From Bacteroidaceae bacterium (GTDB lineage Bacteria > Bacteroidota > Bacteroidia > Bacteroidales > Bacteroidaceae): a DNA stretch of 64,000 nucleotides. Positions 1 to 58,120 of the stretch are shown piece by piece (position 1 is the stretch's first letter; each line of letters opens with the position of its first letter). The stretch covers positions 24,191-88,190 of the forward strand of contig JAFYNL010000034.1 in assembly GCA_017548075.1 (NCBI GenBank), in the 5' to 3' direction. A model generated the notes under the pieces. That model had not been told where the DNA came from. It ran no database searches and was given only the letters and a program-made list of their open reading frames with translations. The translations under genes were made by a program, and so were the position numbers.

Positions 1-193
1 TGCGTTGCAAAAATCGCGTGAATTGGTGCTGAAAATCGGCTGAATTGAGGTGCTGAAATTTGGTGGCGCAGCCGGAATGTCGTAAATTTGCAATGTGAAA
101 GATAAGAGAACGACTGCAGCGTCCTCGGCAAACTTAACAAGTTAAAGTGCGCAATTTAACGAGTTACGATTGCAATCTTCACACGAGAGAAAA
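1..193. repeat. Degenerate tandem ~22-24 bp repeats, same family as the GCAAAC...GTTTGC intergenic arrays
   Basis: Units readable by eye: gcaaaaatcgcgtgaattggt / gctgaaaatcggctgaattgaggt / gctgaaatttggtgg..., then at 128-193 gcaaacttaacaagttaaagtgc / gcaatttaacgagttacgatt / gcaatcttcacacgagag. Confidence 0.55.
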
Positions 194-202
194 GAAACGA
201 CG

Positions 203-264
203 TTAACCTTGACCTTAACCTTAACAAAAAAAAGTTATCGTTAACGTTATCGTCAACGTCAAAA
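203..264. repeat. Two short hexamer tandem blocks (ttaacc/ttgacc x4; gttatc/gttaac/gtcaac x5) separated by an A8 run
   Basis: Direct reading: ttaaccttgaccttaaccttaac aaaaaaaa gttatcgttaacgttatcgtcaacgtcaaaa. Confidence 0.6.
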
Positions 265-289
265 TTTAAAACCTTAAATTTTTAATACC

Positions 290-751
290 ATGATTAACTA
301 CAGCATTATGATTATGGGCACGAAGCCCGGAACAAAGAAGGCTGACATCACCGAGACTAAGGCCTATGGAACCGCTCAGGTTCATGAGGTGCTCGACCTC
401 GACGCTTTCTGTAAGCACATCGCCGACCACAACTCGCCCTTCTCCAAGGGTACCGTGAAGGGCATTCTGACCGACGCCGTCGCTTGTCTTCGCGAGATGA
501 TGCTCGCCGGAAACAAGGTCGTGCTGGGCGACCTCGGCAGCTTCCACGTAGAGCTTGCCACCGAGGGTGCCGACACCACCGACGAGTTCAACGCTCAGAA
601 GATTAAGGAAGTCAACGTTCGCTGGACGCCCGGTCTGGAGTTCAAGAACCTCCGTGCCGAAGCCGAGTTCCAGCTCGTACCTTCCCGTAAGGCTCAGGCC
701 GATGCCATCGAGGTGATTAGGAATGAGGAAACCATTCAAGGGCTTGAGTAA
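290..751 (+). CDS. HU-family (Bacteroidales HU-like) DNA-binding protein
   Basis: 153 aa ORF. The MINYSI... N-terminus and the GSFHVEL...V.V.W.P core are typical of Bacteroidales HU-like histone-like proteins. The antisense ORFs 266..775 and 382..591 are shadow ORFs. Confidence 0.8.
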   Translation: MINYSIMIMGTKPGTKKADITETKAYGTAQVHEVLDLDAFCKHIADHNSPFSKGTVKGILTDAVACLREMMLAGNKVVLGDLGSFHVELATEGADTTDEFNAQKIKEVNVRWTPGLEFKNLRAEAEFQLVPSRKAQADAIEVIRNEETIQGLE

Positions 752-793
752 AGCCCCCTCCCAGCCTCCCCCCATAGGGGAGGAGATGGGAGC

Positions 794-835
794 CGCTAAA
801 CAGTAAACCGTAAACAGTAAACAGTAAACTAACCA
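794..835. repeat. Heptamer block (cgctaaa cagtaaa ccgtaaa cagtaaa cagtaaa ctaacca)
   Basis: 7-nt periodic imperfect tandem repeat read directly. It is the reverse complement of the block at 20285-20319. Confidence 0.8.
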
Positions 836-838
836 GCC

Positions 839-949
839 ATGAAAAAGAACAACATCTGGGAACTCATCCTCAAGGTCATCGTCGCCGCCATAACGGCAGC
901 CTTGACCGCCATCACAACTACAAGTTGTATGGGCAGAGGCCCATTCTAA
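839..949 (+). CDS. 36-aa hydrophobic peptide with a C-terminal SCMG motif (resembles the 'smalltalk' small proteins annotated next to HU-like genes in Bacteroidales)
   Basis: Not in the ORF track because it is under 60 aa. ATG at 839, TAA at 947-949. Translation MKKNNIWELILKVIVAAITAALTAITTTSCMGRGPF. It lies directly downstream of the HU-like gene and is followed by a terminator. The family name is recalled from memory. Confidence 0.5.
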   Translation: MKKNNIWELILKVIVAAITAALTAITTTSCMGRGPF

Positions 950-990
950 GTGAAGAGTGAAGAATCAAGCGCAGGCGGAACTAAAAGGAG

Positions 991-1022
991 AGCCTCGAAT
1001 TAACTTTCGGGGCTTTCTTTTT
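991..1022 (+). terminator. Rho-independent terminator
   Basis: 9-bp stem agcctcgaa / ttcggggct (one U-G pair), 6-nt loop, then ttctttttt. Confidence 0.65.
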
Positions 1023-1053
1023 GTGGTTTTTTTGTAGTTTGAAAAAAATGTTG

Positions 1054-1061
1054 TATCTTTG
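1054..1061 (+). promoter_or_regulatory. Bacteroidetes -7 promoter box TAnnTTTG (tatctttg)
   Basis: Motif lies 28 nt upstream of the ATG at 1090. Confidence 0.5.
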
Positions 1062-1089
1062 CAGCGTGAATGATTAAATTAGCAGTATT

Positions 1090-1332
1090 ATGGCAAATGC
1101 AGCAACAATGCCTACACAGAGGCAGATATTAGTAAATGTTGAGGACGTGTCGATGCTGAAGGATATAAGAAAAGCCATCAGTATGCTAAAAGGTGTGGGA
1201 AAGATAACTGTCCCCCGCCGTCGCAAACTCTACTCGTCATATGAGTTGTCACTCCGCGACCTTGACGAAGGACGAGTGTATAAATACGATAGTCTGGACG
1301 ACCTCATCAAGGAAATAGAGAATGAAGACTAA
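1090..1332 (+). CDS. Putative antitoxin of a type II TA pair (partner of the YafQ-like toxin)
   Basis: 80 aa, acidic C-terminus, overlaps the downstream toxin gene by 11 nt. No confident family assignment from sequence alone. Confidence 0.6.
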   Translation: MANAATMPTQRQILVNVEDVSMLKDIRKAISMLKGVGKITVPRRRKLYSSYELSLRDLDEGRVYKYDSLDDLIKEIENED

Positions 1333-1618
1333 GTACGAGCTGCGCATTACTGGCGAGTGCAAGCAGAACTTGAAGCTTTGCAAGAAACGTGGCTTGCCGA
1401 TGGGCGAACTATGGGCAATCGTTGCGAAATTGCTCAATGGCGAAAAGCTTGATGAGAAATACCAGCCTCATCAGCTTCTCGGAAACCGTAGGGGGCAGTG
1501 GGAGTGCCATATCCAACCCAACTGGTTGCTCATTTGGGAGCAGCATGACCGCGAACTCGTTCTAATCATGGTGAATACCGGCACACATTCCGACCTCTTC
1601 GGAAAGAATAAACGATAA
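1322..1618 (+). CDS. yafQ: Type II toxin-antitoxin system toxin, YafQ family (RelE/ParE superfamily mRNA interferase)
   Basis: 98 aa. HQLLGNRRGQWECHIQPNWLLIW...TGTHSDLFG aligns with E. coli YafQ (H.L.G..KGYRDAHVEPDWILIY...TGTHAALFG). Confidence 0.85.
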   Translation: MKTKYELRITGECKQNLKLCKKRGLPMGELWAIVAKLLNGEKLDEKYQPHQLLGNRRGQWECHIQPNWLLIWEQHDRELVLIMVNTGTHSDLFGKNKR

Positions 1619-1643
1619 CATAGTAGCTTCCTAGCTTCTAGAC

Positions 1644-1674
1644 AGCCTCGAACACGTTTCGGGGCTTTCTTTTT
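1644..1674. terminator. Terminator hairpin, near-identical copy of the one at 991-1022
   Basis: agcctcgaa-cacgt-ttcggggct followed by ttcttttt. It sits between the convergent genes ending at 1618 (+) and 1673 (-). Confidence 0.6.
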
Positions 1675-3223
1675 ATTCCCTTTCGTAAATCTGCATGCGT
1701 TGCTGGGCCGTGACGGGGGCCATGATGTGACGGAGCAAGGGTCGCGGCCAGGTGAGGTTCCAAAGATAACTCAACGGCTGCCAGATGAAACGATAGCGGA
1801 ACAGCTCTTCGTTGTCGTAGATGAGCCGATAGTTGGCCGGCACCGGGGCGTCGTAGTACTCGTGGCAGGTGTTGATGGCGCCAATCTCGCGAACCAGATA
1901 TTTCACCTTTCCGGAGTTGACCAAGGCGGCCTGCTCGGCCTTGATTTCGGGGTCGAGTATGGAGGAGAGGAAGTAGTTCTTGTTGGGCGGCAAGTGGCGG
2001 GTGTGCTGATAAATGCCTGTGTCGTAGCTGCTGAAAGTCAGTACCTCGCTATCCTCGCTCTCGTTCCGGTTGATGATGTCCGCCATCTCGAGCACGCTCG
2101 TGGGGAATGTGCCGTTCACCAAAGTGACGACATTCCAGTTGGTGGCGATGGCGAGAAGGGTGATGAGGACAGCCACGACCCCCACCAAACCTCCCCGAGG
2201 GGAGGCTTTCTGTTTCTCTCCTCTTTGGGGCAACAGGAGGGGCACCAACGCGAAGAAGGGGAAGAGCGTGAGGAAGTAGTAGAACTGGACGGTAAGGGTG
2301 GCGAAGGAGAGGACGAGCATGCCGTAAGTGCCGAAGACGAGGAGCTTCACCTCCTTGCTGACGCGAAGGAAGAAGACGGGAATCATCAGGACTGCCCAAA
2401 TGCCGAGCCTGACGAGCTTGAACCACCAGAAGGCGGGTTCGCCGTTGGTTGCCACGCCGTGATAGTGGAAGATGTTGACCTCGAAGTAGGCATACCAGAG
2501 CGCATCCAGAGTGCCATGGATGGCGAAGTAGGCCAGAACGCCTGCCGTCACTAAGGCGAAGCCCAGCAAAGCCCAAAACACCATCGTCCACAGCGCCTTC
2601 ATCTGCTCGTGCTTCCAAGCGATATAGAGCAGGGCGAGACCTCCTCCCACATAGAAGAACAGAAGGTTGAACTTCATCCAGAAAAGCAGGGCGACGCCGA
2701 TGCCCATCGCAATCGACTGGAGGCGGCTCGGACTTTGTCTGTCCCTGACGAACCTGAGCATCAGATAGAGGCTAAAGGCAAACAGAGGCAGGGCGAACTC
2801 CTCCACGCTGTCGCCATAAGCAAAGAAGTCGGAGGAATAGGTCAGGATGCCGAGGAGAAAGACCCCAAAAACTCCAGATCCTCTCCAAACCTCTCCCTCT
2901 TGGGCGAGGCTTTCTTTTTTTCTCCACATAGAGAGAATTTTCCACGAATAGAGCAGATAGAAGTAGCAGCAAACAATCTCCACAAAGTAGATGCCGATGA
3001 AACTGCTGCGGGAAAGCATGGCCGCCCATTCGTGCAGGAAGAAAAGCACGGGGCCTTTGTGGTCGAAAATATCCACATAAAGCTCCTTGCCGCTCAGCAT
3101 GGCGTTGCCTATCGTCATATAGACGTTCGCATCGTCCCACGGATTGAGCGGATACAAGAACGAGCAAGTGCTGAAGACAGTTATAAGAACTGCCGCGAAA
3201 AGGAACAGGAAGCCGTGTTTCAT
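1673..3223 (-). CDS. Polytopic membrane glycosyltransferase, GT-C fold (ArnT/PMT-like, GT39/GT83 type)
   Basis: 516 aa with many TM helices. The N-terminal WDDANVYMTIGNAMLSGKELYVDIFDHKGP motif is characteristic of ArnT/PMT-like enzymes. Confidence 0.65.
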   Translation of the reverse strand: MKHGFLFLFAAVLITVFSTCSFLYPLNPWDDANVYMTIGNAMLSGKELYVDIFDHKGPVLFFLHEWAAMLSRSSFIGIYFVEIVCCYFYLLYSWKILSMWRKKESLAQEGEVWRGSGVFGVFLLGILTYSSDFFAYGDSVEEFALPLFAFSLYLMLRFVRDRQSPSRLQSIAMGIGVALLFWMKFNLLFFYVGGGLALLYIAWKHEQMKALWTMVFWALLGFALVTAGVLAYFAIHGTLDALWYAYFEVNIFHYHGVATNGEPAFWWFKLVRLGIWAVLMIPVFFLRVSKEVKLLVFGTYGMLVLSFATLTVQFYYFLTLFPFFALVPLLLPQRGEKQKASPRGGLVGVVAVLITLLAIATNWNVVTLVNGTFPTSVLEMADIINRNESEDSEVLTFSSYDTGIYQHTRHLPPNKNYFLSSILDPEIKAEQAALVNSGKVKYLVREIGAINTCHEYYDAPVPANYRLIYDNEELFRYRFIWQPLSYLWNLTWPRPLLRHIMAPVTAQQRMQIYERE

Positions 3224-3245
3224 CGAATTATCGTGTTAGTTGTTG

Positions 3246-3253
3246 CAAAGATA
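3246..3253 (-). promoter_or_regulatory. -7 promoter box (tatctttg on the minus strand)
   Basis: 22 nt upstream of the ATG at 3223 (minus strand). Confidence 0.45.
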
Positions 3254-3262
3254 TGAAATAAT

Positions 3263-3297
3263 TATGGACTATGAACTATGAATTATGAACTTTTTTT
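3263..3297. repeat. Heptamer block (ttatgga ctatgaa ctatgaa ttatgaa ctttttt)
   Basis: Read directly; lies in the divergent intergenic region. Confidence 0.75.
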
Positions 3298-3299
3298 CT

Positions 3300-3307
3300 T
3301 ACCTTTG
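3300..3307 (+). promoter_or_regulatory. -7 promoter box (tacctttg)
   Basis: 8 nt before the ATG at 3316 and 17 nt before the alternative ATG at 3325. Confidence 0.4.
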
Positions 3308-3315
3308 CACAGAAA

Positions 3316-4395
3316 ATGAGAACTATGAGATATAGATTATTGTCTATCGTCTGTTGTCTGTTGACGGTTGTCACAAGCTTTGCTCAGCCTCGCTTTGTGG
3401 CCGATACGGACATCAAGAAGGTGGGCGAAGTGGAGTTCCAGGTGCCGCGGCAGTTCAAACTTGGCTTTACCAACAAGGGCTCGGAGCCTCTCATCATAGA
3501 GGATGTGAAGGCTTCGTGCGGCTGCCTGGAGGTTGCGTTCCCCAAAACACCCATCGCGGCAGGCTCTCGCGGCGAGATAACCCTCACCTACGACGCCAAG
3601 CTCTTGGGCTCGTTCTATAAAGAGGTGGAGGTGATGACAAACGCTTCCGACAAACCCGCATACATCGCCATTCAAGGCACCGTGGTGACCGAAGTGCACG
3701 ACTACAGCGACGAGTTCCCCATCGACCTCGGCAATGTGCGGCTCGTGACGAACACCGTGGAGTTTGAAGACGTGAACATGGGCGACAAGCCGACCGCAGA
3801 ACTGCGCATCCTGAATGCCGACCGTACGGCTTTCCGCCCCGAACTGATGCACTTGCCTCCATATCTCTCGGCAGAATACCTTCCCGAGGACATTCCCGCA
3901 GGCAAGACTGGCACCATCCGACTCACCCTCGATAGCGAGAAACTCAGCGGACTCGGGCTCAACCAGACAAGCGTCTACCTCTCCCGTTACATGGGCGACA
4001 AGATAGGCGAAACAAACGAGATACTCGTCTCGGCCATCCTCTTGCCAAGCTTTGCCGACATGGGCGAAGAAGCACTCGCAATGGCTCCGGAACTGGGCAT
4101 CAGCGAGTCGTCCGTCGACATGGGAGCTTTCAACGGGAAGAAAACCCTCACCCATACTATCCTCCTCACCAACACAGGCAAGAGCGACCTCCACATCCAT
4201 GCAGTTCAGGTCTTCAACAAAGCCATCAGCGTGGACATCGCCAACAGAACGATTCGCCCGGGCAAGACTACGAAGCTGAAGATAACCGTCAGCGCACACT
4301 ACATGGGCAAAAGCAAAGGCCGAATGCGCGTCATGCTCATCACAGACGCTCCCAAACAAGCGAAGCAATACCTCAATATTGAAATAAGAGAATAA
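3316..4395 (+). CDS. DUF1573 domain-containing secreted protein
   Basis: 359 aa. Signal peptide, then FTNKGSEPLIIEDVKASCGCLEVAFPK, the hallmark ASCGC motif of DUF1573. A second similar Ig-like module follows (LLTNTGKSDLHIHAVQV). Confidence 0.8.
   Translation: MRTMRYRLLSIVCCLLTVVTSFAQPRFVADTDIKKVGEVEFQVPRQFKLGFTNKGSEPLIIEDVKASCGCLEVAFPKTPIAAGSRGEITLTYDAKLLGSFYKEVEVMTNASDKPAYIAIQGTVVTEVHDYSDEFPIDLGNVRLVTNTVEFEDVNMGDKPTAELRILNADRTAFRPELMHLPPYLSAEYLPEDIPAGKTGTIRLTLDSEKLSGLGLNQTSVYLSRYMGDKIGETNEILVSAILLPSFADMGEEALAMAPELGISESSVDMGAFNGKKTLTHTILLTNTGKSDLHIHAVQVFNKAISVDIANRTIRPGKTTKLKITVSAHYMGKSKGRMRVMLITDAPKQAKQYLNIEIRE
3340..3374. repeat. Heptamer block (ttgtcta tcgtctg ttgtctg ttgacgg ttgtcac), antisense of the GACAACA family, inside the signal-peptide codons
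   Basis: Read directly; encodes LLSIVCCLLTVVT. Confidence 0.8.
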
Positions 4396-4430
4396 GAAAT
4401 TAAGAAAATAAGAGATTAAGAGATTAAGAA
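4383..4430. repeat. Octamer block (aataagag aataagaa attaagaa aataagag attaagag attaagaa)
   Basis: Read directly; spans the stop codon at 4393-4395. Confidence 0.8.
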
Positions 4431-4481
4431 GATTTCGGCATCTTTTCTTATTTTCTACATTTCACATTATCTACATTCATC

Positions 4482-5579
4482 ATGGAACACCCTGAGAATA
4501 ATCCCGAATATGCAGGCTTGACTGTGAATAGCGGCGTAGGGCCTGTCTCTATCGTCAATCCGCACCTCAACCGCAATCGTTTCGTTCGCCGTCGTCTCTC
4601 TGCCGCCGACTATGTGGAAGGCATCCTGAAGGGCGACATCACGATTCTGGGGCAAGCCGTGACGCTCGTCGAGAGCACCATCCCCGAGCATCAGACCATC
4701 GCTCAGGAAGTCATCGAGAAGTGTCTGCCCTACTCCGGCAACAGCGTTCGCGTAGGCATCAGCGGCGTTCCAGGTGCGGGCAAGAGTACCAGCATAGACG
4801 AGTTCGGCATTCATGTTCTCAAGGAACGAGGTGGACGTCTGGCAGTCCTCGCCATCGACCCCTCAAGCGAAAGAACAAAGGGAAGCATTCTTGGCGACAA
4901 GACGAGAATGGAGAAACTTGCCGTCCACCCCGACTCTTTCATTCGCCCCAGCCCCTCGGCAGGCAGTTTGGGAGGTGTGGCACGCAAGACTCGCGAGACC
5001 ATCATCCTTTGCGAAGCAGCAGGTTTCGACAAGATTTTCGTCGAGACAGTTGGTGTGGGACAATCAGAGACGGCTTGCCACTCGATGGTCGATTTCTTCC
5101 TGCTCATCCAACTTGCAGGCACAGGCGACGAGCTGCAAGGCATCAAGCGCGGCATCATGGAAATGGCCGACGGCATCATCATCAACAAATGCGACGGCAA
5201 CAACGTGGATAAGTGCCAGCTCGCAGCCACGCACTTCCGCAACGCACTCCAGCTCTTCCCGCTTCCCGAAAGCGGTTGGGCTCCGCAAGTCCTCACTTAT
5301 AGCGGTTTCTACGGCTACGGCATCAAGGAGGTCTGGGACATGGTTTACAGCTATATCGACTTTGTGAAGAAGAGCGGCTACTTCGAGTATCGCCGCGCAG
5401 AACAGGCAAAGTACTGGATGTACGAAAGCATCAACGAGCAACTAATGGGTAACTTCTATCACAACCCCACCATCGCAGATATGCTTCAAGCTGCCGAGCA
5501 AGGTGTTCTTCGCGGCGAAAGGACTTCATTCGTCGCCGCCAAGCAACTGCTCGATTCTTACTTTGCACTCCTCCATTAA
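4482..5579 (+). CDS. meaB: Methylmalonyl-CoA mutase-associated GTPase MeaB (ArgK family G3E GTPase)
   Basis: 365 aa. P-loop GISGVPGAGKST, plus ETVGVGQSE and NKCD motifs. Confidence 0.9.
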   Translation: MEHPENNPEYAGLTVNSGVGPVSIVNPHLNRNRFVRRRLSAADYVEGILKGDITILGQAVTLVESTIPEHQTIAQEVIEKCLPYSGNSVRVGISGVPGAGKSTSIDEFGIHVLKERGGRLAVLAIDPSSERTKGSILGDKTRMEKLAVHPDSFIRPSPSAGSLGGVARKTRETIILCEAAGFDKIFVETVGVGQSETACHSMVDFFLLIQLAGTGDELQGIKRGIMEMADGIIINKCDGNNVDKCQLAATHFRNALQLFPLPESGWAPQVLTYSGFYGYGIKEVWDMVYSYIDFVKKSGYFEYRRAEQAKYWMYESINEQLMGNFYHNPTIADMLQAAEQGVLRGERTSFVAAKQLLDSYFALLH

Positions 5580-6398
5580 CCACTTTGGAGTCGAGGTGGC
5601 TCCACAAATGCCTATCGACTCACAACCTTGCAGCCAACGGACCTCGATTTCGTTGGCTGTATCTATCATGTAGGAGCGAGGATTTGCCTTCCGACATTCG
5701 TTGAAGAGGACGCGGCCGTTACTGCTCTTCTTGCCGCAGACGAAGAGGACTGCATCGTGCTTGAGGGCAAAGCTGCGGATGTTGGGCATGCGGTTTGCCA
5801 CTTGTCGGCAAATCGTGTCGTAATAGGTAAAGGTTGCTTCGGGACTGATGTGCTGCTGAACGTAATCCACAATCTTGCGGAACTCGTCGAGCGGCATCGT
5901 CGTCTGGGAATAGAGGCAAATGTCGCGATTGAAGTCGAGTTTCTTCACCTCCTCGGCCGACTCGATAATGATGGCGGTTTCTTCCGTCTGCCCCACCAGT
6001 CCGAGCACCTCAGCATGGCCGTTCTTACCGAAGATGACAATCTGCTTCTTGTGCTCCACATCGGCATCGTATTCCTTCTTGATACGCTCCTGAAGGTGCA
6101 ACACAACAGGGCAAGTGGCATCAATCAGGTTGATGGAATGTTCTCGAGCCAAAGCATAGGTGGAAGGCGGTTCGCCATGAGCACGCAGGAGGACTTTGGC
6201 ATCATGAATGTCGCGCATCTGCTCGTGATTAATCGTCACCAACCCCATCTGGCCAAGACGGTTACACTCCTTGCCGTTGTGAACAATGTCGCCCAGACAA
6301 TAAAGCTGTTCCTCCTTGGCAAGTTCCTCTTCCGCCTTACCGATGGCTCGCGTCACACCAAAGCAGAAGCCCGAACCTTGGTCGATTTCTATCGTCAT
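5526..6398 (-). CDS. ispH: 4-hydroxy-3-methylbut-2-enyl diphosphate reductase
   Basis: 290 aa. GFCFGVTRAI, the HGEPP region, VVGG-type core and TICRQV-type motif are typical of IspH/LytB. Confidence 0.93.
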   Translation of the reverse strand: MTIEIDQGSGFCFGVTRAIGKAEEELAKEEQLYCLGDIVHNGKECNRLGQMGLVTINHEQMRDIHDAKVLLRAHGEPPSTYALAREHSINLIDATCPVVLHLQERIKKEYDADVEHKKQIVIFGKNGHAEVLGLVGQTEETAIIIESAEEVKKLDFNRDICLYSQTTMPLDEFRKIVDYVQQHISPEATFTYYDTICRQVANRMPNIRSFALKHDAVLFVCGKKSSNGRVLFNECRKANPRSYMIDTANEIEVRWLQGCESIGICGATSTPKWLMEECKVRIEQLLGGDE

Positions 6399-6402
6399 GA
6401 GT

Positions 6403-6490
6403 GCAAAAACTTAACGTGGTTAAATCGCAAACTTAACGTGTTACGTTGGCAAACTTAACGTGCTTAGTTGGCAAACTTAACGTGGAGCGT
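6403..6490. repeat. Array of 4 tandem ~22-bp units (gcaaacttaacgtgttacgttg type, reverse orientation on the + strand)
   Basis: gcaaaaacttaacgtggttaaatc / gcaaacttaacgtgttacgttg / gcaaacttaacgtgcttagttg / gcaaacttaacgtggagcgtt. The array almost exactly fills the cmk-ispH intergenic gap. Confidence 0.9.
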
Positions 6491-6491
6491 T

Positions 6492-7184
6492 TTAATCCTC
6501 TCCTGCCACTCTGTAATATTGTTCCAGAAGCCAATTTTTCTGTTCTGGAATCGTCAGATTACTATTGTCGAGCACGATGGCATCTTCAGCCTGTCGAAGC
6601 GGACTGATTTCGCGAGTTGAATCGATGCGGTCACGCTCAATAACGTTGGCCTTTATCTCTTCGAAGTCGCACTTCTCGCCCTTAGCCGTCAGCTCATCGA
6701 AGCGACGCTGAGCACGCACATCCACGCTTGCAGTAACGAAGACCTTCAGTTCGGCATCAGGAAAGACGACGGTTCCGATGTCGCGACCATCCATAATCAC
6801 TCCCTTTGCCTCGCCCATCAAGCGCTGCAAGTCCACCATTGCCTCGCGGACAAAGCCAAGCGTAGCGATAGGGCTGACGTACTTCGAGACCTCCATCGTG
6901 CGGATATCTCGCTCCACGCAAACGCCGTTCAGGTAGGTATCGGGACGCCCCGTCTCCTCGTTCAACTGGAAGGTTATCATGATGTCCGACATACGCTCGC
7001 GAAGTCCTTCCTCATCAATGCCCTCCTCCGAAATCAAGCCATTCTGAAGGGCAAAAAGCGTAACTGCACGATACATCGCGCCCGTATCAATATATATGTA
7101 GCCAATCTCCTTAGCGAGGTCCTTGGCCATCGTACTCTTGCCACAAGAAGAGTGGCCGTCAATTGCTATTGTAATCAGTTTCAT
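6492..7184 (-). CDS. cmk: Cytidylate kinase
   Basis: 230 aa. [14 protein letters not shown]-loop and a [13 protein letters not shown] motif. Confidence 0.93.
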
Positions 7185-8185: not shown

Positions 8186-8298
8186 AAATCGACTCCAAAG
8201 GTAAGGCTTTTTATATCAATAACGGACATCATGGGCACAAAATTACATTCAAACGAAAAAAAATGGCTCTTTCGTGCACGTATAATAAAAAAAAGGTA

Positions 8299-8306
8299 TA
8301 AATTTG
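8299..8306 (+). promoter_or_regulatory. -7 promoter box (taaatttg)
   Basis: 45 nt upstream of the ATG at 8352. Confidence 0.4.
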
Positions 8307-8351
8307 TGGCACTAATAATCATTATTGGCAATAATAACAACAAAATACAAC

Positions 8352-9068: not shown

Positions 9069-9094
9069 AACAACACTAATTACATACAGCTGAG

Positions 9095-9127
9095 AGGCTG
9101 TTCGCTTTTCGGCGGACAGCCTTTTTT
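9095..9127 (+). terminator. Rho-independent terminator
   Basis: 11-bp stem aggctgttcgc / gcggacagcct followed by tttttt. Confidence 0.7.
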
Positions 9128-9151
9128 CGTTTCCCTATATATAAATATATA

Positions 9152-13724: not shown

Positions 13725-13767
13725 ATGTTACAACAGGACACATCTTCCAACTAGGCTCAGTTAAAAT

Positions 13768-13855
13768 GCAAACGTAACACGTTATGATTGCAAACGTAAC
13801 ACGTTAAGTTTGCCAACGTAACACGTTAAGTTTGGAAACTTCACAGGCGATGTTT
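13768..13855. repeat. Array of ~4 tandem 22-bp units (gcaaacgtaacacgttaagttt, forward orientation)
   Basis: gcaaacgtaacacgttatgatt / gcaaacgtaacacgttaagttt / gccaacgtaacacgttaagttt / ggaaacttcacaggcgatgttt (decaying). Confidence 0.9.
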
Positions 13856-13966
13856 ACAAACGCGACTGCAAGCCCCATTCAATTCCTCAAATGTAAAATC
13901 TTCATAAATCTGCATCTTTTTGTCGTAAATAAGTGTTAGACTATTTGCTATTTCAAGAAAAATTCG

Positions 13967-17925: not shown

Positions 17926-19686
17926 ATGAGTCTCGCAGTTACAGGTTTCGGCATTATTTGCGCGATTGGAAATGACGCACAAAGTGTTCTTCGTTCCCTT
18001 CAAGAAGGCAGAACGGGGATAGGAGCCATGCGTTATCTGCAATCGAGCCACAAGGAACTTCCCGTCGGAGAAGTGAAACTCTCAAATGATGAGATGAAGC
18101 GAATGCTCGGACAGGATGAGAAGTCCATCATCAGCCGCACAGTTTTGATGGGAGCAATCGCTATTCGTCAGGCTTTGGAGCACGCCAATCTTGACCTGAA
18201 AGGCAAGCGAATCGCCCTCATCAACGGCACAACTGTAGGCGGAATGGATATTACGGAGCACTACTTCATGCAGATGAAGGAGGATGATGCCCTATTGCCT
18301 GTCCTTGAGAAGCACGACTGTGGAAGTTCCACTCGCGAAATGGCCGACCTTGCAGGCCTGAAGGATGCAGAAGTTTGCACAATCTCGACGGCCTGTTCAT
18401 CTGCAGTAAATGCCATTATTCTTGGGTCGGAAATGCTCAAGAACAACGAGGCAGACATCATCATAGCTGGCGGCACAGAGGCTTTGAGCTTGTTCCACCT
18501 CAACGGATTCAATTCCCTGATGATTCTCGACAAAGAGCAATGCCGTCCTTTCGACAAGAATCGAGCAGGACTGAATCTGGGCGAAGGAGCCGCTTTCGTT
18601 GTGCTTCAGAAGCCTGAGAACCTAACAAACGAGCAAAATCCTCTCGCCTACATTCGCGGTTATGGCAATCGTTGTGATGCCTTCCACCAGACTGCTTCGT
18701 CCGAAGATGGTGAAGGAGCCTTCCTTGCGATGAGTGAAGCCCTGAAAATGAGCGGGTTAGAGCCTCAAGACATTCAATATATAAATGCTCACGGAACAGG
18801 GACTCCCAATAATGATGCAAGCGAAAGTGCGGCTATTCGACGAGTTTTCGGAGAGAAAATTCCACCCGTCTCGAGCACAAAAGGCTTTACAGGGCACACG
18901 ACTTCGGCTTCTGGTTCGATTGAGGCAGTCATTTGCATCCTGTCTCTTCTCAAGGACTTCGTGCCCGCAAACCTTGGTTGGAAGGAGCAAGACGAAGCCT
19001 GCATCAAGCCGACGACGGACAACAGACAACAGACAACGGAGAACATTCTTTGCAATTCCTTTGGCTTTGGAGGGAATGATTCGGCAGTTGTGATAAGCAA
19101 AAACGCTAGCCCCTCTAACTCCTCACAAAAGGAGCAGAACCTCGAAGTTTGTACTTTGGGAGAGGCTATTGTTGAAGATGTGGAGCAACTTCAAGAACTT
19201 CGAGAGTTCATTTCTCCAGGCGAGGCCCGAAGGATGGGCAAACTCATGAAGGCTGCCACCATTACTTCGCTCAAAGCTTTGCAGGCTGCAGGAATCGAGA
19301 CTCCTGATGCCATCATTACTGCAACCGCTTTTGGAATGCTCGAAACGAGTGAGAAGTTTATGGTCGATATGTTGGAAAATGGCGAGGAAACCTTGAGTCC
19401 CACCCTCTTCATGCAAAGCACGCACAATACTTTGAGTTCCGCAATCGCCATTCGAACCAAATGTCATGGCTACAATATGACTTATTCGCAAGGCTCCGAC
19501 TCGCTTGAATGGGCACTTCGCGACGCGCGAAGGCTGATAGAAACGGGCAAAGCGAAGACAGTTCTGGTAGGTTTTCACGACGAAGCAACCCCAACGTTCC
19601 AGGAGTTCTTCCGTCGTATGGAAAAGCCCATTCCATCGATGCTTTACTCTCGAAGCATAGTGCTTGGGAGAAGACCTGCAGAGTAG
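17926..19686 (+). CDS. Beta-ketoacyl-ACP synthase (FabF/FabB-like, Cys-His-His) fused to a chain-length-factor-like domain
   Basis: 586 aa. STACSSAVNAI, NAHGTGTPNNDASE, GHTTSASG and NSFGFGGND motifs. The C-terminal ~190 aa carry SPTLFMQSTHNTLSSAIAI, typical of the APE-type CLF (PF13723-like). Confidence 0.88.
   Translation: MSLAVTGFGIICAIGNDAQSVLRSLQEGRTGIGAMRYLQSSHKELPVGEVKLSNDEMKRMLGQDEKSIISRTVLMGAIAIRQALEHANLDLKGKRIALINGTTVGGMDITEHYFMQMKEDDALLPVLEKHDCGSSTREMADLAGLKDAEVCTISTACSSAVNAIILGSEMLKNNEADIIIAGGTEALSLFHLNGFNSLMILDKEQCRPFDKNRAGLNLGEGAAFVVLQKPENLTNEQNPLAYIRGYGNRCDAFHQTASSEDGEGAFLAMSEALKMSGLEPQDIQYINAHGTGTPNNDASESAAIRRVFGEKIPPVSSTKGFTGHTTSASGSIEAVICILSLLKDFVPANLGWKEQDEACIKPTTDNRQQTTENILCNSFGFGGNDSAVVISKNASPSNSSQKEQNLEVCTLGEAIVEDVEQLQELREFISPGEARRMGKLMKAATITSLKALQAAGIETPDAIITATAFGMLETSEKFMVDMLENGEETLSPTLFMQSTHNTLSSAIAIRTKCHGYNMTYSQGSDSLEWALRDARRLIETGKAKTVLVGFHDEATPTFQEFFRRMEKPIPSMLYSRSIVLGRRPAE
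19011..19045. repeat. Heptamer block (gacgacg gacaaca gacaaca gacaacg gagaaca) inside the KS-CLF gene
   Basis: Read directly; encodes TTDNRQQTTEN just before the NSFGFGG motif. Confidence 0.85.
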
Positions 19687-19688
19687 TT

Positions 19689-19777
19689 GCCAAACATAAC
19701 ACGTTAAAATGGCAAACGTAACACGTTAACTTTGCAATCATAACACGTTAACTTTGCCAACGACACTAGGGTTGTTT
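19689..19777. repeat. Array of ~4 tandem 22-bp units (forward) separating the two halves of the lipid cluster
   Basis: gccaaacataacacgttaaaatg / gcaaacgtaacacgttaacttt / gcaatcataacacgttaacttt / gccaacgacactagggttgttt. It begins 3 nt after the stop at 19686. Confidence 0.9.
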
Positions 19778-30524: not shown

Positions 30525-31244
30525 ATGAAGATTCAGTTTAAGTATTGGGGCGAGGCTTTGATTCTCGCCGCAGGACTCTTCCTGGCAGGAGGAGCTATCA
30601 GAAAAGGAATCGTGCAGTTCAAGGAAATGGACCGCACAGTTACGGCCAAAGGTCTCTCGGAAAAAGAGGTGAAGGCCGACAAAGTGACTTGGCCGCTGAA
30701 GTTCAAGGAGTTAGGCAACGACCCGGCTGAGCTCTACGAGACTATCGCAAAGGATACTCGCACAATTGTGGAGTTCCTGAAAGCAAACGGGCTCAGCGAC
30801 GAGGAAATCACGCAGGCTCCGCCTCAGATGGTTGACCAACAGGCCAATATGAGCTACAGTAGTGAGATGGTTCGCTATCGTTACAAAGCAAATTGTGTAG
30901 TGACTGTTGTGAGCAAGAACGTGGATCTCGTTCGCAAACTCGTCACCAAACAAGCCGACCTAATGCGGCAAGGCGTTACCATCATTGGCAATGAATACGA
31001 CGATGATGGAAACGTGAGCTACGAGTTCACAGGCCTCAACACCATCAAGCCCGAGATGATTGCCGAAGCCACAAAGAATGCTCGCAAGACTGCGGAACGC
31101 TTTGCTGAGGATTCCGATAGTAAGTTGGGCAAGATTCGTACTGCCGATCAAGGTCAGTTCAGCATCGAGAGCCGCGACCAGAACACGCCTTGGATCAAGA
31201 ATGTCCGAGTGGTTACAACCGTCGTTTACTACCTGAAGGACTGA
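30525..31244 (+). CDS. SIMPL (DUF541) domain-containing protein
   Basis: 239 aa. N-terminal anchor. Overall pattern (VTAKGLSEKEVKADKV...; C-terminal VRVVTTVVYYLK) resembles SIMPL/BP26-like proteins. Confidence 0.65.
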   Translation: MKIQFKYWGEALILAAGLFLAGGAIRKGIVQFKEMDRTVTAKGLSEKEVKADKVTWPLKFKELGNDPAELYETIAKDTRTIVEFLKANGLSDEEITQAPPQMVDQQANMSYSSEMVRYRYKANCVVTVVSKNVDLVRKLVTKQADLMRQGVTIIGNEYDDDGNVSYEFTGLNTIKPEMIAEATKNARKTAERFAEDSDSKLGKIRTADQGQFSIESRDQNTPWIKNVRVVTTVVYYLKD

Positions 31245-31305
31245 CATAACACAGTTAAAATCCAAACGTAACATGTTAAGTTTGCTGATGACACACGCGT
31301 CGTTT
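31241..31305. repeat. Array of ~3 degenerate 22-bp units (forward), overlapping the stop codon
   Basis: ctgacataacacagttaaaat / ccaaacgtaacatgttaagttt / gctgatgacacacgcgtcgttt. Confidence 0.75.
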
Positions 31306-37970: not shown

Positions 37971-38056
37971 CAACACTCTTAGTGTCGTTGGCAAACTTAA
38001 CGTGGTTAAATCGCAAACATAACGTGTTATGTTGACGAAGTTAACGTGTTACGTTT
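37971..38056. repeat. Array of ~4 tandem 22-bp units (reverse orientation) starting 2 nt after the trpA stop
   Basis: caacactcttagtgtcgttg / gcaaacttaacgtggttaaatc / gcaaacataacgtgttatgttg / acgaagttaacgtgttacgttt. Confidence 0.9.
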
Positions 38057-38062
38057 GATAAT

Positions 38063-38096
38063 TAGACGTGCCTAGTTTCCGAATTAGGCACGTCTA
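38063..38096. terminator. Perfect 12-bp hairpin between the convergent trpA and GH35 genes (candidate bidirectional terminator)
   Basis: tagacgtgccta-gtttccgaat-taggcacgtcta. No strong T-run on either side. Confidence 0.5.
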
Positions 38097-38101
38097 GTCT
38101 T

Positions 38102-47963: not shown

Positions 47964-48071
47964 CCAAACAACTGCAGTTACGATGGCAAACATAACACGT
48001 TAACTTTGCAAACGTAACACGTTAAGATTGGCAACGTAACACGCTACGTTTGCAATCGTAACTGGGGTCAT
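47964..48071. repeat. Array of ~5 tandem 22-bp units (forward) starting 6 nt after the stop
   Basis: ccaaacaactgcagttacgatg / gcaaacataacacgttaacttt / gcaaacgtaacacgttaagattg / gcaacgtaacacgctacgttt / gcaatcgtaactggggtcat. Confidence 0.9.
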
Positions 48072-48084
48072 ATTAAAAGCATCC

Positions 48085-54741: not shown

Positions 54742-54750
54742 CAGAAAAAG

Positions 54751-56997
54751 ATGGATATGGAGAAGAACCAATATACAGAACGAAGGATTAGTAACACGAT
54801 AAAGCCTGCTGAAATGGGGCTTGAAGAGTGGCAAGTGACTTTGAGAAGACAACAGGCTCAACGCGAGCATTTTACCATCAGCGAAACAAGTGCGCAATTC
54901 TGTCCAGGAGAATATAAAGTCAGCAACTACAAGTCGCGCAACCAATATAAGGTCATCTACAGGGGTGAATACAGTCCTTGGAACTATTGTTCCTGTCCCG
55001 ATTTTCGCACATCAGGGCTTGGGACCTGCAAGCATGTGGAGGGTGTGAAGTTGTGGCTGAAGGCTGAGAGGAAAGAGGTGCACAACGAAGAGCCCGACTA
55101 CTCGTCTGTTTATATGGATTATCGTGGCCAGCGCTGCATCCGCATTCGTATTGGAGAGCATCATCGCAAGGAACTGACGGCTTTGGCTGGCGAGTATTTC
55201 GACCAAGCCTCTGTTCTTCGTCCAGAAGCCTACGCTCGTTTCGATTCGTTCATCGAGAAGGCTCGCAACATCGACCCCGACTTCCGTTGCTATCCTGATG
55301 CTCTGGAGGAAGTCATCTGTCAGCGCGAACGCTTGCAAAGAACGGCGCTCATGGAATCCGCCTATACGGACGATGCTCTCGATGCTCTGCTCACGAAGAA
55401 ACTCTACCCTTATCAGAAGGAAGGCGTTCGCTTTGCCATCAAGGCAGGAAAGGTCATCATAGCCGATGAAATGGGACTTGGCAAGACGGTTCAAGCCATT
55501 TGCTGTGCTGAGATTTACCTCAAAGAAAAGATGGCAGAGAGCGTGCTTATCGTTTGTCCGAACTCCCTCAAATATCAATGGAAGAGCGAGATTGAGAGGT
55601 TTACAGGCAAAGACGATACGCTCATTGTGGAGGGCTATGCTTCCAGACGACTGGGACTCTACAATGCGCCTGCAACATACAAAATTGTCTCCTATCAGTC
55701 GCTGGCTAACGACATCAAGACGCTGAATCGTCTCCCTACCGATTTACTCATCATGGACGAAGTGCAGCGGCTCAAGAACTGGAACACGCAACTGGCTTGG
55801 GCAGTTCGCCGCATCGACTCGCATTACAGCATCTTGCTTTCAGGAACGCCACTCGAGAACAAACTCGACGAACTCGTTTCCATCGTTCAACTTGCCGACC
55901 CCTATTGCCTTTCGCCGCTCTATCGCTTCCGCTACGACCACATCATCACAGACCCCGAATCGGGCAAAGCCGTTGGTTATAAGAATCTTAGCGACATCAG
56001 GGAGAAACTGAAGAACACACTCATCAGGAGGACGAAACAAAGCGTGCGTCTGCAATTGCCTGGACGAACCGACCAGTTCCTGCTCATTCCCATGACCGGT
56101 CGACAATTCTCTCTCCACGAGGAACTGCGAGCAGCTGTTGCGAAACTGGTGAGCAAATGGTCGCGCGCTCACACCCTCAGCGAGGAAGACCGCCGTCGCT
56201 TGCTCAGTATGCTCGGACAGATGCGGATGCTTGCCGACAGCACATTCGTCGTTGATCAGGATATGGAGAATCGTCAGGATGTGAAGGTTGGCGAGCTGAT
56301 GAACATCTTGGGCGATGCTTTGGATGGCGGAACAGCGAAGATTGTGGTCTTCAGCGAATGGGAACGAATGGCGCGACTGGTGGCAACGGAACTCGATGCT
56401 GTGGGCATTCACTATGAATTCCTGCATGGAAGCGTTCCTGCTCAGAAGCGAAGCGAACTCATCGAACGCTTCACGAACGATGAAGACTGTCGCATTTTCC
56501 TCTCTACCGATGCAGGTTCAACAGGGCTCAATCTGCAGGCAGCCAGCATCCTCATCAACATCGACCTCCCCTGGAATCCAGCCGTTCTGGAGCAACGCAT
56601 AGGCCGCATCTACCGCATCGGACAGGAAACGCCCATTCAAGTGCTGAATCTCGTTTCGAAGAACTCCATAGAGGAGGGCATGATAAAGCGCCTGAAGTTC
56701 AAGCAATCGATGTTCGAAGGGGCGCTCGACGGCGGCGACGACACCATCTTCCTCAGCGACGACCAGTTCCGAGGCTTTATGAGTGAGATTGCCGAAGTGA
56801 CTGCTTCCTCTCCGCTCCCTCAAAAGGAAGAGAATCTCCAATTCGACGAAGTCGACGAAAGTCCTGAAGTCTCACCTCAGGGAGATTTAGAGGGGGATGT
56901 AACCACCTTCCTCTCTTCTCTTCGCGACATTCTCCAATCGCCCGAAAAGACAAAGAAATTGGCAGACGCCATCACGAAAATACTTAACGAATCATGA
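54751..56997 (+). CDS. SNF2-family helicase with an N-terminal SWIM zinc finger
   Basis: CSCPDFRTSGLGTCKHV (SWIM), ADEMGLGKT (motif I), DEVQRLKN (motif II), STDAGSTGLNLQ and QRIGRIYRIGQ (motif VI). Confidence 0.88.
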   Translation: MDMEKNQYTERRISNTIKPAEMGLEEWQVTLRRQQAQREHFTISETSAQFCPGEYKVSNYKSRNQYKVIYRGEYSPWNYCSCPDFRTSGLGTCKHVEGVKLWLKAERKEVHNEEPDYSSVYMDYRGQRCIRIRIGEHHRKELTALAGEYFDQASVLRPEAYARFDSFIEKARNIDPDFRCYPDALEEVICQRERLQRTALMESAYTDDALDALLTKKLYPYQKEGVRFAIKAGKVIIADEMGLGKTVQAICCAEIYLKEKMAESVLIVCPNSLKYQWKSEIERFTGKDDTLIVEGYASRRLGLYNAPATYKIVSYQSLANDIKTLNRLPTDLLIMDEVQRLKNWNTQLAWAVRRIDSHYSILLSGTPLENKLDELVSIVQLADPYCLSPLYRFRYDHIITDPESGKAVGYKNLSDIREKLKNTLIRRTKQSVRLQLPGRTDQFLLIPMTGRQFSLHEELRAAVAKLVSKWSRAHTLSEEDRRRLLSMLGQMRMLADSTFVVDQDMENRQDVKVGELMNILGDALDGGTAKIVVFSEWERMARLVATELDAVGIHYEFLHGSVPAQKRSELIERFTNDEDCRIFLSTDAGSTGLNLQAASILINIDLPWNPAVLEQRIGRIYRIGQETPIQVLNLVSKNSIEEGMIKRLKFKQSMFEGALDGGDDTIFLSDDQFRGFMSEIAEVTASSPLPQKEENLQFDEVDESPEVSPQGDLEGDVTTFLSSLRDILQSPEKTKKLADAITKILNES

Positions 56998-58037
56998 CAA
57001 TTCTCATCACAGGAGCCAGCGGTTTCATCGGCAGTTTTATCGTAGAGGAGGCCTTGAAGCAGGGCTTCGAAGTCTGGGCTGGCGTGCGAGGTACAAGCAG
57101 TCGCAAATACTTGCAGGACGAACGCATCCACTTCGCTCAGCTCGATATGCAGAATCCCAGCAAGTTGAAGGAACAGCTCCTTTCCTACAAGGAGGAGATG
57201 GGCAAAGGTTGGGACTATGTGGTTCATGCTGCTGGCGCCACCAAGTGTCTGCACCAGGAGGACTTCTTCCGCACCAATACCGAGGGGACCAAGAATCTCA
57301 TCGATGCCCTTCGAGAGACGGAGATGGTGCCCCAGCGATTCGTGTTCCTGAGCAGCCTGAGCATCTTCGGAGCCATTCGCGAAGAGCCCGTCAGGAAGCC
57401 TACAGACGACAATCCTTGGATTTACTCCCCTATCCTTCTCACAGACGAACCCAAGCCCAATACAGCCTACGGAGAGAGCAAACTGGCTGCTGAACACTAC
57501 CTCAGGGAGCAGAAGGATTTCCCCTACACCATCCTGCGTCCTACAGGGGTTTATGGGCCTCGCGAGCGCGACTATTTCCTTATGGCTCAGAGCATTAAGC
57601 AACATATCGACATTGCCGCTGGCCTTACGCCTCAGGAGATTACCTTCGTCTATGTCCTCGATGTGGTGCAGGCCGTCCTCAAGAGTATGGAAACACCGGA
57701 GGCTGAGGGCAAAGCTTACTTCCTGAGCGATGGAAAAGTCTATAACAGCCGCAGCTACAGCGACCTCGTCCAGAAGTATCTCGGCAATCCTTGGGTGCTG
57801 CACCTGAAGTTGCCTCTCTGTCTGCTAAGAGCCATCTGCTGGGTGAGCGGAAGAATCAGCCACTTGACAGGCAAGATGAACGCCCTGAACGACGATAAGT
57901 TCAACATCCTCTCGCAACGCAACTGGCAGTGCGACATTCAGCCAGCCATCGACGACTTCGGCTATGCGCCCCAGTGGAGCCTCGAGCAGGGAGTAGAGGC
58001 CAGTATCCTTTGGTACCGTAAGGAGGGTTGGCTCTGA
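56994..58037 (+). CDS. NAD-dependent epimerase/dehydratase family (extended SDR) protein
   Basis: 347 aa. ITGASGFIGS Rossmann motif and YGESKLAAE (YxxxK). ATGA overlap with the helicase gene. Confidence 0.85.
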   Translation: MTILITGASGFIGSFIVEEALKQGFEVWAGVRGTSSRKYLQDERIHFAQLDMQNPSKLKEQLLSYKEEMGKGWDYVVHAAGATKCLHQEDFFRTNTEGTKNLIDALRETEMVPQRFVFLSSLSIFGAIREEPVRKPTDDNPWIYSPILLTDEPKPNTAYGESKLAAEHYLREQKDFPYTILRPTGVYGPRERDYFLMAQSIKQHIDIAAGLTPQEITFVYVLDVVQAVLKSMETPEAEGKAYFLSDGKVYNSRSYSDLVQKYLGNPWVLHLKLPLCLLRAICWVSGRISHLTGKMNALNDDKFNILSQRNWQCDIQPAIDDFGYAPQWSLEQGVEASILWYRKEGWL

Positions 58038-58055
58038 ACTTCGCCAGTGTCGTTC

Positions 58056-58120
58056 GCGAACATAACGTGCTGCGTTGGGCAACTTAACATGCTGCGTTGG
58101 GCATCGCAGCTGCCTGTGTT
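58056..58120. repeat. Array of ~3 diverged 22-bp units (reverse orientation)
   Basis: gcgaacataacgtgctgcgttgg / gcaacttaacatgctgcgttgg / gcatcgcagctgcctgtgtt. Confidence 0.7.

Follow-up and report, generated by a model that had tools for sequence, protein, structure and literature searches.

Repeat elements in the window

We analysed a 64,000-nt stretch of contig JAFYNL010000034.1 (positions 24,191 to 88,190; Bacteroidaceae bacterium, assembly GCA_017548075.1), hereafter called the window. The window is ordinary chromosome containing cmk, ispH, a TonB/ExbBD cluster, lipid-synthesis genes, the trp operon, purL, glycoside hydrolases and tRNAs, and no mobile-element genes were seen among its genes. 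Eight copies of a repeat made of palindromic 22-bp units are dispersed between these genes, about one per 8 kb. Each copy is a discrete element with defined ends, and we compared the elements with those of 147 related loci comprising 1.13 Mb (single loci are labelled L with a number).

An earlier note on the window had reported eight dispersed tandem arrays of the unit. The 22-bp consensus GCAAACGTAACACGTTAAGTTT matched the window 11 times with at most three mismatches, against 0 matches expected from 100 shuffles. Tandem Repeats Finder (TRF) reported period-22 arrays at sites 2, 3, 4, 7 and 8, and units are visible in the raw sequence at all eight sites. A profile hidden Markov model (HMM) was trained on 77 canonical elements from other genomes, leaving out the window and the contigs of the same species. 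It gave exactly eight matches in the window and none elsewhere (E 1e-28 to 8e-8): 108-203 (-), 6399-6516 (-), 13746-13855 (+), 19668-19777 (+), 31238-31305 (+, partial), 37971-38098 (-), 47964-48073 (+) and 58017-58123 (-). All eight reported sites were thus recovered from copies of other genomes, with no extra ones, and two of their limits were changed. Site 1 spans about 108-203 instead of 1-193, bases 1-65 being a different 22-23-nt repeat, and site 6 reaches about 38098, taking in two diverged modules with a perfect 12-13-bp hairpin. In the 1.13 Mb of related DNA we found 193 arrays of period 22, and any other period from 15 to 33 gave at most eight.

Element architecture and folding

From the 147 loci, 143 non-redundant copies were cut in register. 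The element is about 110 bp long and composed of five abutting 22-bp modules in the order terminal, three core, terminal. Core modules were counted on 118 non-redundant copies, of which 81 contained three, 23 four, seven two and five five; copies with 4-8 core modules made up 22%. The core consensus is GCAAAC-N-TAAC-AC-GTTA-N-GTTT, and each core module can potentially form a hairpin of 9-11 bp. The modules are arranged head-to-tail with zero spacing, and in most elements all module centres point one way (3:0 or 0:3).

The terminal modules are chimeric: the inner half is a core half, and the outer half comes from another palindrome (AAAAC(G/A)AC-TGCA/CCCCAG...). Examples of the left module are GAAAACAAC(C/T)(C/G)CAGTTACGATG and CCAAACAACCCTCAGTTAAAAT; examples of the right module are GCCATCGTAACTGGGGTTGTTT and TGATTTTAACTGAGGGTTGTTT, the reverse complements of the left types, and there is a third type, GCGATTTAACCACGCC..GTTT. 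The element therefore carries terminal inverted repeats (TIRs), the left AAAAC(A/G)AC(C/T)(C/G)CAGTTA... being the reverse complement of the right ...TAACTG(G/C)(G/A)GT(T/C)GTTT. Because these inverted chimeric termini enclose palindromic cores, the roughly 110-bp element as a whole forms a long, imperfect palindrome that can pair as one hairpin. We also tried a "TTAAAT" polar end unit as a marker of replication direction; it was dropped, since terminal modules occur in both orientations.

Some readings of the earlier note have to be replaced on this basis. What had been taken for copies decaying toward the distal end are specialised terminal modules, present at both ends and mutually inverted. 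The units had also been judged weak as RNA hairpins, and element 7 folds into one long hairpin of -41.1 kcal/mol as RNA (z -5.6) and -20.8 kcal/mol as DNA (z -4.9). The remarks that T-runs are absent and that the arrays are not CRISPRs agree with our data: no T-run stands 3' of the elements, and the modules abut directly without unique spacers.

The eight elements

Element 1 (108..203, -; HMM E 1.4e-11) is degenerate and located upstream of a HU-HIG gene (290-751, Pfam). An L-type terminus, GAACGACTGCAG, at about 108-126 is followed by two to three worn core modules at 125-190. A different 22-23-nt repeat (GCTGAAAATCGCCTGAATTAGGT-like; TRF period 22 at 10-58), cut by the window start, abuts element 1 at positions 1-65 and may be another family of the same superfamily. 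Between element 1 and the HU-HIG gene, just upstream of the latter, there is also a tandem hexamer/12-mer at 199-259 (TTAACC x3.8; GTTATCGTTAAC/GTTATCGTCAAC x2.2), which may be an operator-like array.

Element 2 (6399..6491, -; E 3e-24) occupies the entire 93-nt gap from the cmk stop (6492-6494, -) to the ispH ATG (6396-6398, -); its core orientation is sense to both genes, and it is identical in six contigs of the same species.

In element 3 (13746..13868, +; E 2e-28), a terminal module CCAACTAGGCTCAGTTAAAAT is followed by three cores, and the diverged right modules end in ACAAACGCGACTGCAAGCCCC. The element is preceded by the canonical terminator of exbD (13698-13728) and followed by the promoter of the next gene (TAGCTTTGCAAA, about 13967). 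An orthologue of equal length was found in MAG (metagenome-assembled genome) RGIG10220 (L007), and at the same site L028 has two modules more than the window, bounded by the direct repeats CCAACTAGGC and CTAACTAGGC.

Element 4 (19668..19777, +; E 4e-27) starts at the stop of a beta-ketoacyl synthase gene (19684-19686) and has the terminal module GCCAACGACACTAGGGTTGTTTT as its last module. A canonical terminator (19830-19852) lies downstream, and the orthologous site in L009 carries a rearranged element of five modules.

Element 5 (31238..31305, +; E 8e-8) is truncated to three modules and matches only model positions 49-109. It overlaps the stop (31242-31244) of a SIMPL-family gene, with the trp promoter and leader downstream. 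Fuller elements are present at this site in L017 and L154, and L156 is without a gap there.

Element 6 (37971..38098, -; E 1e-21) fills the convergent gap between the stops of trpA (37967-37969) and a glycoside hydrolase family 35 (GH35) gene (38102-38104). A B-type terminal hairpin is located within it at 37973-37993, and its two diverged modules at 38062-38096 fold as the perfect 12-13-bp hairpin mentioned above.

Element 7 (47964..48073, +; E 9e-28) is the canonical copy, in which CCAAACAACTGCAGTTACGATG and GCAATCGTAACTGGGGTCAT enclose three core modules. It takes up the convergent gap between the stops of an EamA gene (47956-47958) and an HTH_34 gene (48085-48087), both named by Pfam, and an extra hairpin of terminal type lies beside it at 47941-47962.

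Element 8 (58017..58123, -) is a diverged variant with modules GCGAACATAACGTGCTGCGTTGG, scoring E 1.9e-11 on the minus strand vs 5e-6 on the plus strand. It begins about 18 nt past the stop of an epimerase gene (58035-58037), to which its core orientation is antisense.

The earlier note had placed the start of the arrays 0-10 nt after a stop codon, with one overlapping the stop. Site 3 departs from this, starting about 85 nt past the exbD stop; all other sites are 0-18 nt from a stop or overlap it.

Distribution across genomes and gene gaps

Exact-pattern scans found tandem arrays only in rumen Bacteroidaceae/Prevotellaceae MAGs (the RUG and RGIG series and one from reindeer) and in contigs of rumen metagenomes; three matches in other phyla were single and non-tandem. 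Proteins identical to those of the window were found on rumen metagenome contigs up to 160 kb long. A scan of viral contigs gave 0 matches, and BLAST against plasmids gave none. The density of 8 copies per 64 kb extrapolates to a copy number of several hundred per genome.

Genes were called with a codon-usage caller trained on the window. The 143 non-redundant copies are essentially all intergenic, and they overlap genes only where an ORF (open reading frame) enters the element before its stop. A bias for 3' gene ends, which the earlier note had proposed to check, was evident in the related loci: the median distance from the upstream stop to the element is 16 nt (interquartile range 4-45), 56% of copies lie within 20 nt and 19% overlap the stop, and the median distance from the element to the downstream start is 127 nt. 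This adjacency is partly automatic, because the modules carry TAA in shifting frames and end entering ORFs within about one module. An element is present in 30% of the convergent gaps of these loci, in 11% of the co-directional and in 17% of the divergent ones (chi-square p = 2e-6), absolute fractions that are inflated by the choice of loci for their elements.

The ends of metagenome contigs often lie no more than about 300 nt from an element (for example L005, L014, L024, L033, L044, L071 and L098), which suggests that the repeats fragment short-read assemblies of these genomes.

Copying of whole elements and sister families

The identity of core modules is 0.766 within an element, 0.775 between modules of the same position in other elements and 0.759 between modules of different positions. 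In a permutation test of same- vs different-position similarity, z was 14.5 after collapse to 52 clusters, and the position-specific consensus differs among modules 1, 2 and 3. As modules are no more alike within an element than in the same position elsewhere, local slippage does not build the arrays. The elements are copied and spread as whole units, and slippage only occasionally alters the module number, as at site 3 in L028 vs the window.

Sister families of the same period were found on the same loci. They share the frame GCAA(A/T)C ... CACG ... (A/T)TTGC, and their inner stems differ and stay self-complementary: CCGC/GCGG (abundant), TCCAC/GTGGA, TTCAC/GTGAA, TGGC/GCCA and TTAGAC/GCCTAG. 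Among 172 non-redundant period-22 arrays, 156 match at least 8 of 10 frame positions (GCAA..CACG..TT). Hairpins with this frame standing alone outside arrays are rare, only five being found in the related loci. Families are co-resident on single contigs, e.g. L056, and behind the same gene one strain (L099) has a TAAC-family element in the gap where a close one (L144) has a CCGC-family element.

The modules of the CCGC family read GCAATC-G-CCGC-AC-GCGG-G-GATT, and in several copies the terminal modules have a GT or CT centre unlike the core. Its copies share contigs with the TAAC family and were located at L052 5263-5367, L056 7904-8009, L112 278-395 and 4309-4393, L144 1122-1198 and 7393-7476, and L057 10312-10442.

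Filled and empty sites and persistence of the elements

Orthologous sites differ in the presence of an element at cmk|ispH, trpA|chrA and ACP|ligase (ACP, acyl carrier protein), in addition to the L099/L144 replacement. The cmk/ispH site is empty in L148/L149 and L152/L153 (Cmk 88% identical), where cmk and ispH overlap by 4 or 11 nt; at the filled site, they are separated by 93 nt of element in the window and by 133 nt in L150/L151 (Cmk 92% identical). By flanking coding sequence, the two filled genomes form a group; they have the right junction in common and internal modules from different subfamilies. An element standing between formerly overlapping genes means that insertion took place into an operon of translationally coupled genes, directly upstream of ispH. 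The ispH gene is generally essential, and an element kept in front of it therefore does not block read-through.

The trpA and chrA genes overlap by 17 nt in L154 and are separated in L155 by a TTCAC-family element of three modules. In the window, the ACP gene overlaps that of the AMP-ligase (TAATG); in L017 about 215 bp, including an element of six modules, lie between the two. The cmk/ispH and trpA/chrA inserts have the overlap segment on both sides, with both copies coding; the duplicated segments may be a viability filter rather than a footprint of transposition. Flanking direct repeats at fixed offsets were not found. Clean insertion boundaries were not obtained from L084/L147 and L099/L144, where the surrounding 3' regions are hypervariable.

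Contig JAGCXU010000172 (MAG RGIG10220) is syntenic with 10-34 kb of the window at 54-95% (mostly 73-95%) amino-acid identity, and it has elements, though rearranged, at the sites orthologous to elements 3, 4 and 5. Occupying orthologous sites across species, the elements are old and long-lived. In L155, the place that element 5 has after the SIMPL gene is taken, at 770-1100, by an insert of about 1.2 kb with many ACGGATT/AATCCGT direct and inverted repeats, which is a different repeat element.

Tests for a function in the host

Core orientation relative to transcription, another check the earlier note had proposed, was read from the asymmetric module centre (AC or GT) and compared with that of the upstream gene. 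In the window the cores seemed to follow it (4 sense and 1 antisense among co-directional sites), and the idea was rejected on the larger sample, which showed no bias (35 sense and 30 antisense). No compensatory covariation was detected, the Watson-Crick frequency being equal to the expectation from column composition both within modules and at junctions. Likewise, the arms and ends of one copy match each other no better than they match the arms of other copies. Across 16 orthologous pairs, mean identity (means of per-pair values) was about 0.89 for elements, about 0.88 for adjacent intergenic sequence and about 0.92 for coding flanks. There may be weak constraint on the element sequence, considering the equal length of orthologues and a few more uniform positions.

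The organism uses canonical terminators consisting of a hairpin plus T-run, and these stand beside elements 3 and 4. A terminator scan of window positions 1-20000, covering elements 1-4, flagged no whole element; the only match inside one was a stem of 7 pairs at 19746-19762 in element 4. The elements do not show the GC-rich hairpin with immediate T-run of an intrinsic terminator.

Nature of the repeat family

The discrete five-module architecture, the homology over whole elements, the insertion polymorphism that extends into operons, the persistence at orthologous sites, the divergence about as fast as that of intergenic sequence and the absence of both strand bias and covariation point in one direction. 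We consider that the elements probably form a dispersed, non-coding and non-autonomous palindromic repeat family or superfamily of the kind represented by repetitive extragenic palindromes (REPs) with their composites BIME (bacterial interspersed mosaic element) and REPIN, by ERIC (enterobacterial repetitive intergenic consensus) and by MITEs, the miniature transposable elements with inverted repeats. Their behaviour resembles that of selfish DNA more than that of a regulatory array of protein-binding sites. Under this explanation, a trans-acting enzyme would propagate the elements, recognising their modules as hairpins or as a cruciform. We infer recognition of hairpins because an invariant frame is combined with family-specific stems that remain self-complementary; the enzyme would read the frame, namely the GCAA/TTGC stem base and the CACG apex, and leave the inner stem to the family. 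Proximity to stop codons would mostly mark the places where an insertion of 110 bp is tolerated. A stable hairpin in 3' untranslated regions and intercistronic RNA is a likely side effect, tolerated by the cell, since ispH expression needs transcription through the element.

A narrower version is possible and is held only tentatively: the elements may be substrates of a hairpin-specific mobilisation or DNA-structuring system in Bacteroidota, in which a protein reads the frame, the stems give specificity, and several families coexist and even replace each other at the same sites near stop codons. If true, element and enzyme would form a partnership of a new class, comparable to that of REPs with RAYTs (REP-associated tyrosine transposases) and unrelated to it.

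Several observations weigh against a mobile, non-autonomous family. Neither a transposase nor a RAYT-like gene was found in the window, and a phmmer search of the 1.13 Mb of loci with an approximate sequence of IS608 TnpA found no RAYT/IS200-like ORF. The genes bracketed by two elements are ordinary, encoding a histidine kinase, a GH127 enzyme, PyrD, TrmD and a zeta toxin. No target-site duplication was detected in 121 copies, the longest common substring of the flanks having a mean of 5.68 vs 5.72 in controls. No near-identical copies at different loci were found; the maximum identity among cluster representatives, which are not orthologous, is 0.82, and recent activity is therefore not demonstrated. 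Three further features could reflect a function in the host: the preference for convergent gaps, the almost always equal length of elements at orthologous sites despite 10-25% divergence of the flanks, and the conservation of module positions A4, C11, G14 and T21 (94-97%, against 74-80% for the others).

These last features lead to a host-selected RNA element of mRNA 3' ends, which we regard as rather unlikely. Here the hairpin would shield the 3' ends of mRNA from exonucleases or act as a (bidirectional) terminator or insulator, as was proposed for REP, SMAG and ERIC. The short distance to stops and their overlap by a fifth of the copies fit this explanation, as do the three-fold enrichment in convergent gaps, often filled completely (elements 6 and 7), the strong fold, the length kept at orthologous sites, and the terminal modules, whose stem base, placed between AAAAC and GTTGTTT, is relatively rich in GC. 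The structure is symmetric, so that the absence of strand bias is not decisive against it. On the other side, canonical terminators stand beside elements 3 and 4 and beside the L099 and L144 elements, and copies inside operons (before ispH, and between the ACP and ligase genes) make efficient termination impossible. Compensatory change is lacking, conservation is not clearly above that of intergenic sequence, and no T-run follows the elements.

The earlier note had offered an array of binding sites for a dimeric protein as one option. Here a dimeric or nucleoid-associated protein would bind the duplex and organise DNA at gene ends through sites phased every two helical turns. The strict 22-bp period, the fixed module number, the phased A/T tracts and the invariant boxes TTGCAA and CACG, which lie 11 bp apart on one helix face in all families, suit such an array. 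The inner half-sites, however, differ wholly between co-resident families (TAAC/GTTA, CCGC/GCGG, TTCAC/GTGAA) and remain self-complementary, which argues for pairing within a strand, since hairpin formation requires it and duplex read-out does not. Individual copies also diverge about as fast as intergenic DNA, and no DNA-binding gene recurs next to the elements: HU-HIG and HTH_34 are single cases. We therefore consider the protein array improbable.

Clusters of promoter-like boxes, firing or titrating RNA polymerase, are very improbable. The module junction GTTAAGTTTGCA resembles the local -7 box, TA(n)CTTTGCA, on both strands, the two strands of a module bear TAAGTTTGCA and TACGTTTGCA, respectively, and the low-information positions of the module coincide with the "nn" of TAnnTTTG; transcription starts would be placed about 7 nt downstream of TAAGTTTG. 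However, the preceding TTTG lies 14 nt away instead of about 19 nt, box position 4 is G where C is usual, the CCGC and TCCAC sister families are without the box, there is no orientation bias toward downstream genes, and genuine promoters are present downstream of elements 3, 4 and 5. Ordinary minisatellites arising by local replication slippage of a 22-bp palindrome are hardly to be expected either: differences in unit number do occur, at site 3 and in the 22% of copies with 4-8 core modules, but slippage does not explain the sharp mode of three core modules with specific inverted termini, the lack of extra similarity within elements, or the same composite structure at more than 100 unrelated loci in several species.

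Comparison with known repeats

The probable assignment to a mobile-type repeat family leaves the question of the nearest known relative. REP, BIME and REPIN of Proteobacteria are mobilised by RAYT (Y1 HUH) transposases (PMC2817692, PMC3733652, PMC3337134). REP palindromes carry a conserved GTAG or CGTC tetranucleotide at one end (PMC3733652), and clustered REPs alternate in orientation with linker motifs between them (PMC2817692). For Bacteroidota only CGTC-type REPs are mentioned. Our elements resemble these repeats in having an imperfect palindrome of 20-40 bp as unit, hundreds of extragenic copies, composite clusters, a position often a few nt from stops or even supplying the stop, and several sequence classes per genome; as in a REPIN, folding of the entire composite can give one long hairpin. 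They differ in the tag, which is absent from the module consensus and from the position table, the foot of the hairpin having the frame GCAA...TTGC. They also have a strict head-to-tail 22-bp period without linkers, where BIMEs alternate in orientation and have linkers. Dedicated chimeric terminal modules, the preferred number of three core modules, the host phylum and the lack of a detected RAYT set them further apart. The REP-like family that the earlier note had offered as its other option thus holds in part: the elements are dispersed, high-copy, extragenic, palindromic, stop-adjacent, enriched in convergent gaps and polymorphic between filled and empty sites; the tag and linkers of REPs are not there, and no RAYT was found in the window or the related loci.

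MITE-type and large palindromic repeats such as Correia/NEMIS, ERIC and RUP are non-coding imperfect palindromes of about 100-150 bp with inverted termini, co-transcribed with flanking genes and polymorphic in presence between strains. Our elements share the size, the non-coding nature, the inverted termini, the palindromic whole and the presence/absence polymorphism; unlike MITEs, they have no detected target-site duplication, a parent insertion sequence (IS) sharing their ends was not found, and their interior is made of periodic hairpin modules instead of unique sequence. A longer element was also looked for, and a strict regular expression found no terminus pairs more than 300 bp apart within the loci. 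The family works like REP/BIME or MITE and should not be filed under either, because no tag, no alternating linkers, no target-site duplication and no parent IS were found.

The BrickBuilt MITE of Porphyromonas gingivalis is likewise a dispersed intergenic element of Bacteroidales with tandem units of 22-23 nt (PMC4596501). It differs in its unit, AGAYCATARTATCCTCTCRTRTG, which is non-palindromic and unrelated, in its highly variable copy number (e.g. 18 repeats), and in its leader and tail segments, the TIRs of which match ISPg elements (PMC4596501). CRISPRs share short, partly palindromic repeats in register, but our elements lack spacers, have only five modules, stand at hundreds of dispersed loci and are not accompanied by cas genes.

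Arrays of iteron or centromere type (R6K, RK2, parC) consist of 3-7 direct repeats with a 22-bp period. Unlike these, the elements occur about once per 8 kb on the chromosome behind ordinary genes, with palindromic units, family-specific inner stems and no Rep or Par gene nearby.

The earlier note knew of no description of the repeat, and neither Rfam nor the literature on repeats yielded one. In the window only tRNAs reached the gathering threshold of Rfam, and for element 7 the only matches were to miRNA-precursor models far below threshold (at most 29 bits, vs thresholds of 74-200 for the best three). The unit sequence was not found in the papers searched, and searches on Prevotella/Bacteroidetes repeats, REP/RAYT and MITE gave only the unrelated BrickBuilt and general REP work. 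The family is apparently undescribed.

Repeats of the REP, ERIC and MITE kind shaped ideas on selfish DNA, the biology of mRNA 3' ends and genome typing in Proteobacteria. Comparable families have barely been described for Bacteroidota, and none was found described for the dominant uncultured rumen Prevotella lineages, so that both the phylum and the habitat are of note, together with the unusually regular modular design and the coexistence of stem-swapped families. In practice, the elements are an issue for the annotation and assembly of rumen MAGs, many contigs of which end in an element, and are a potential marker for strain typing. They also provide a handle for finding the enzyme that would propagate hairpin-module DNA in Bacteroidota, and they caution that phased palindromic arrays are not always binding sites of regulatory proteins.

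Other features of the window

Most genes of the window are preceded by a strong -7 box of the form TA(n)CTTTGCA; its distance to the start codon is typically 16-60 nt and reaches about 115 nt, with examples at 3300, 13967, 47001, 49308, 54734 and 58602.

Below element 5, a complete trp attenuation leader was found at 31392-31562. Its -7 box, TACCTTTGCA, stands at about 31392; the leader peptide encoded at 31441-31485, MTVNNWWWRDSRLV, has three Trp codons in a row, and a terminator hairpin with T-run lies at about 31520-31562. The Rfam model Bacteroid-trp matched this leader below threshold, with 30.6 bits vs a gathering score of 49.

A two-gene cassette at 1090-1618 is composed of a YafQ-type toxin (1322-1618) and an 80-aa partner (1090-1332). 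Its presence is patchy in contigs of the same species: L026, L027 and L030 carry it, and L029 has a leucine-rich repeat (LRR) gene in its place.

Very long antisense "shadow" ORFs were observed at 31573-32769 (-), 46966-47967 (-), 5628-6458 (+), 3337-4368 (-) and 61651-63495 (-), among others. In the three that were checked, the shadow ORF had no Pfam match and the sense ORF matched Pfam, so that such ORFs are a trap for ORF-based annotation here.

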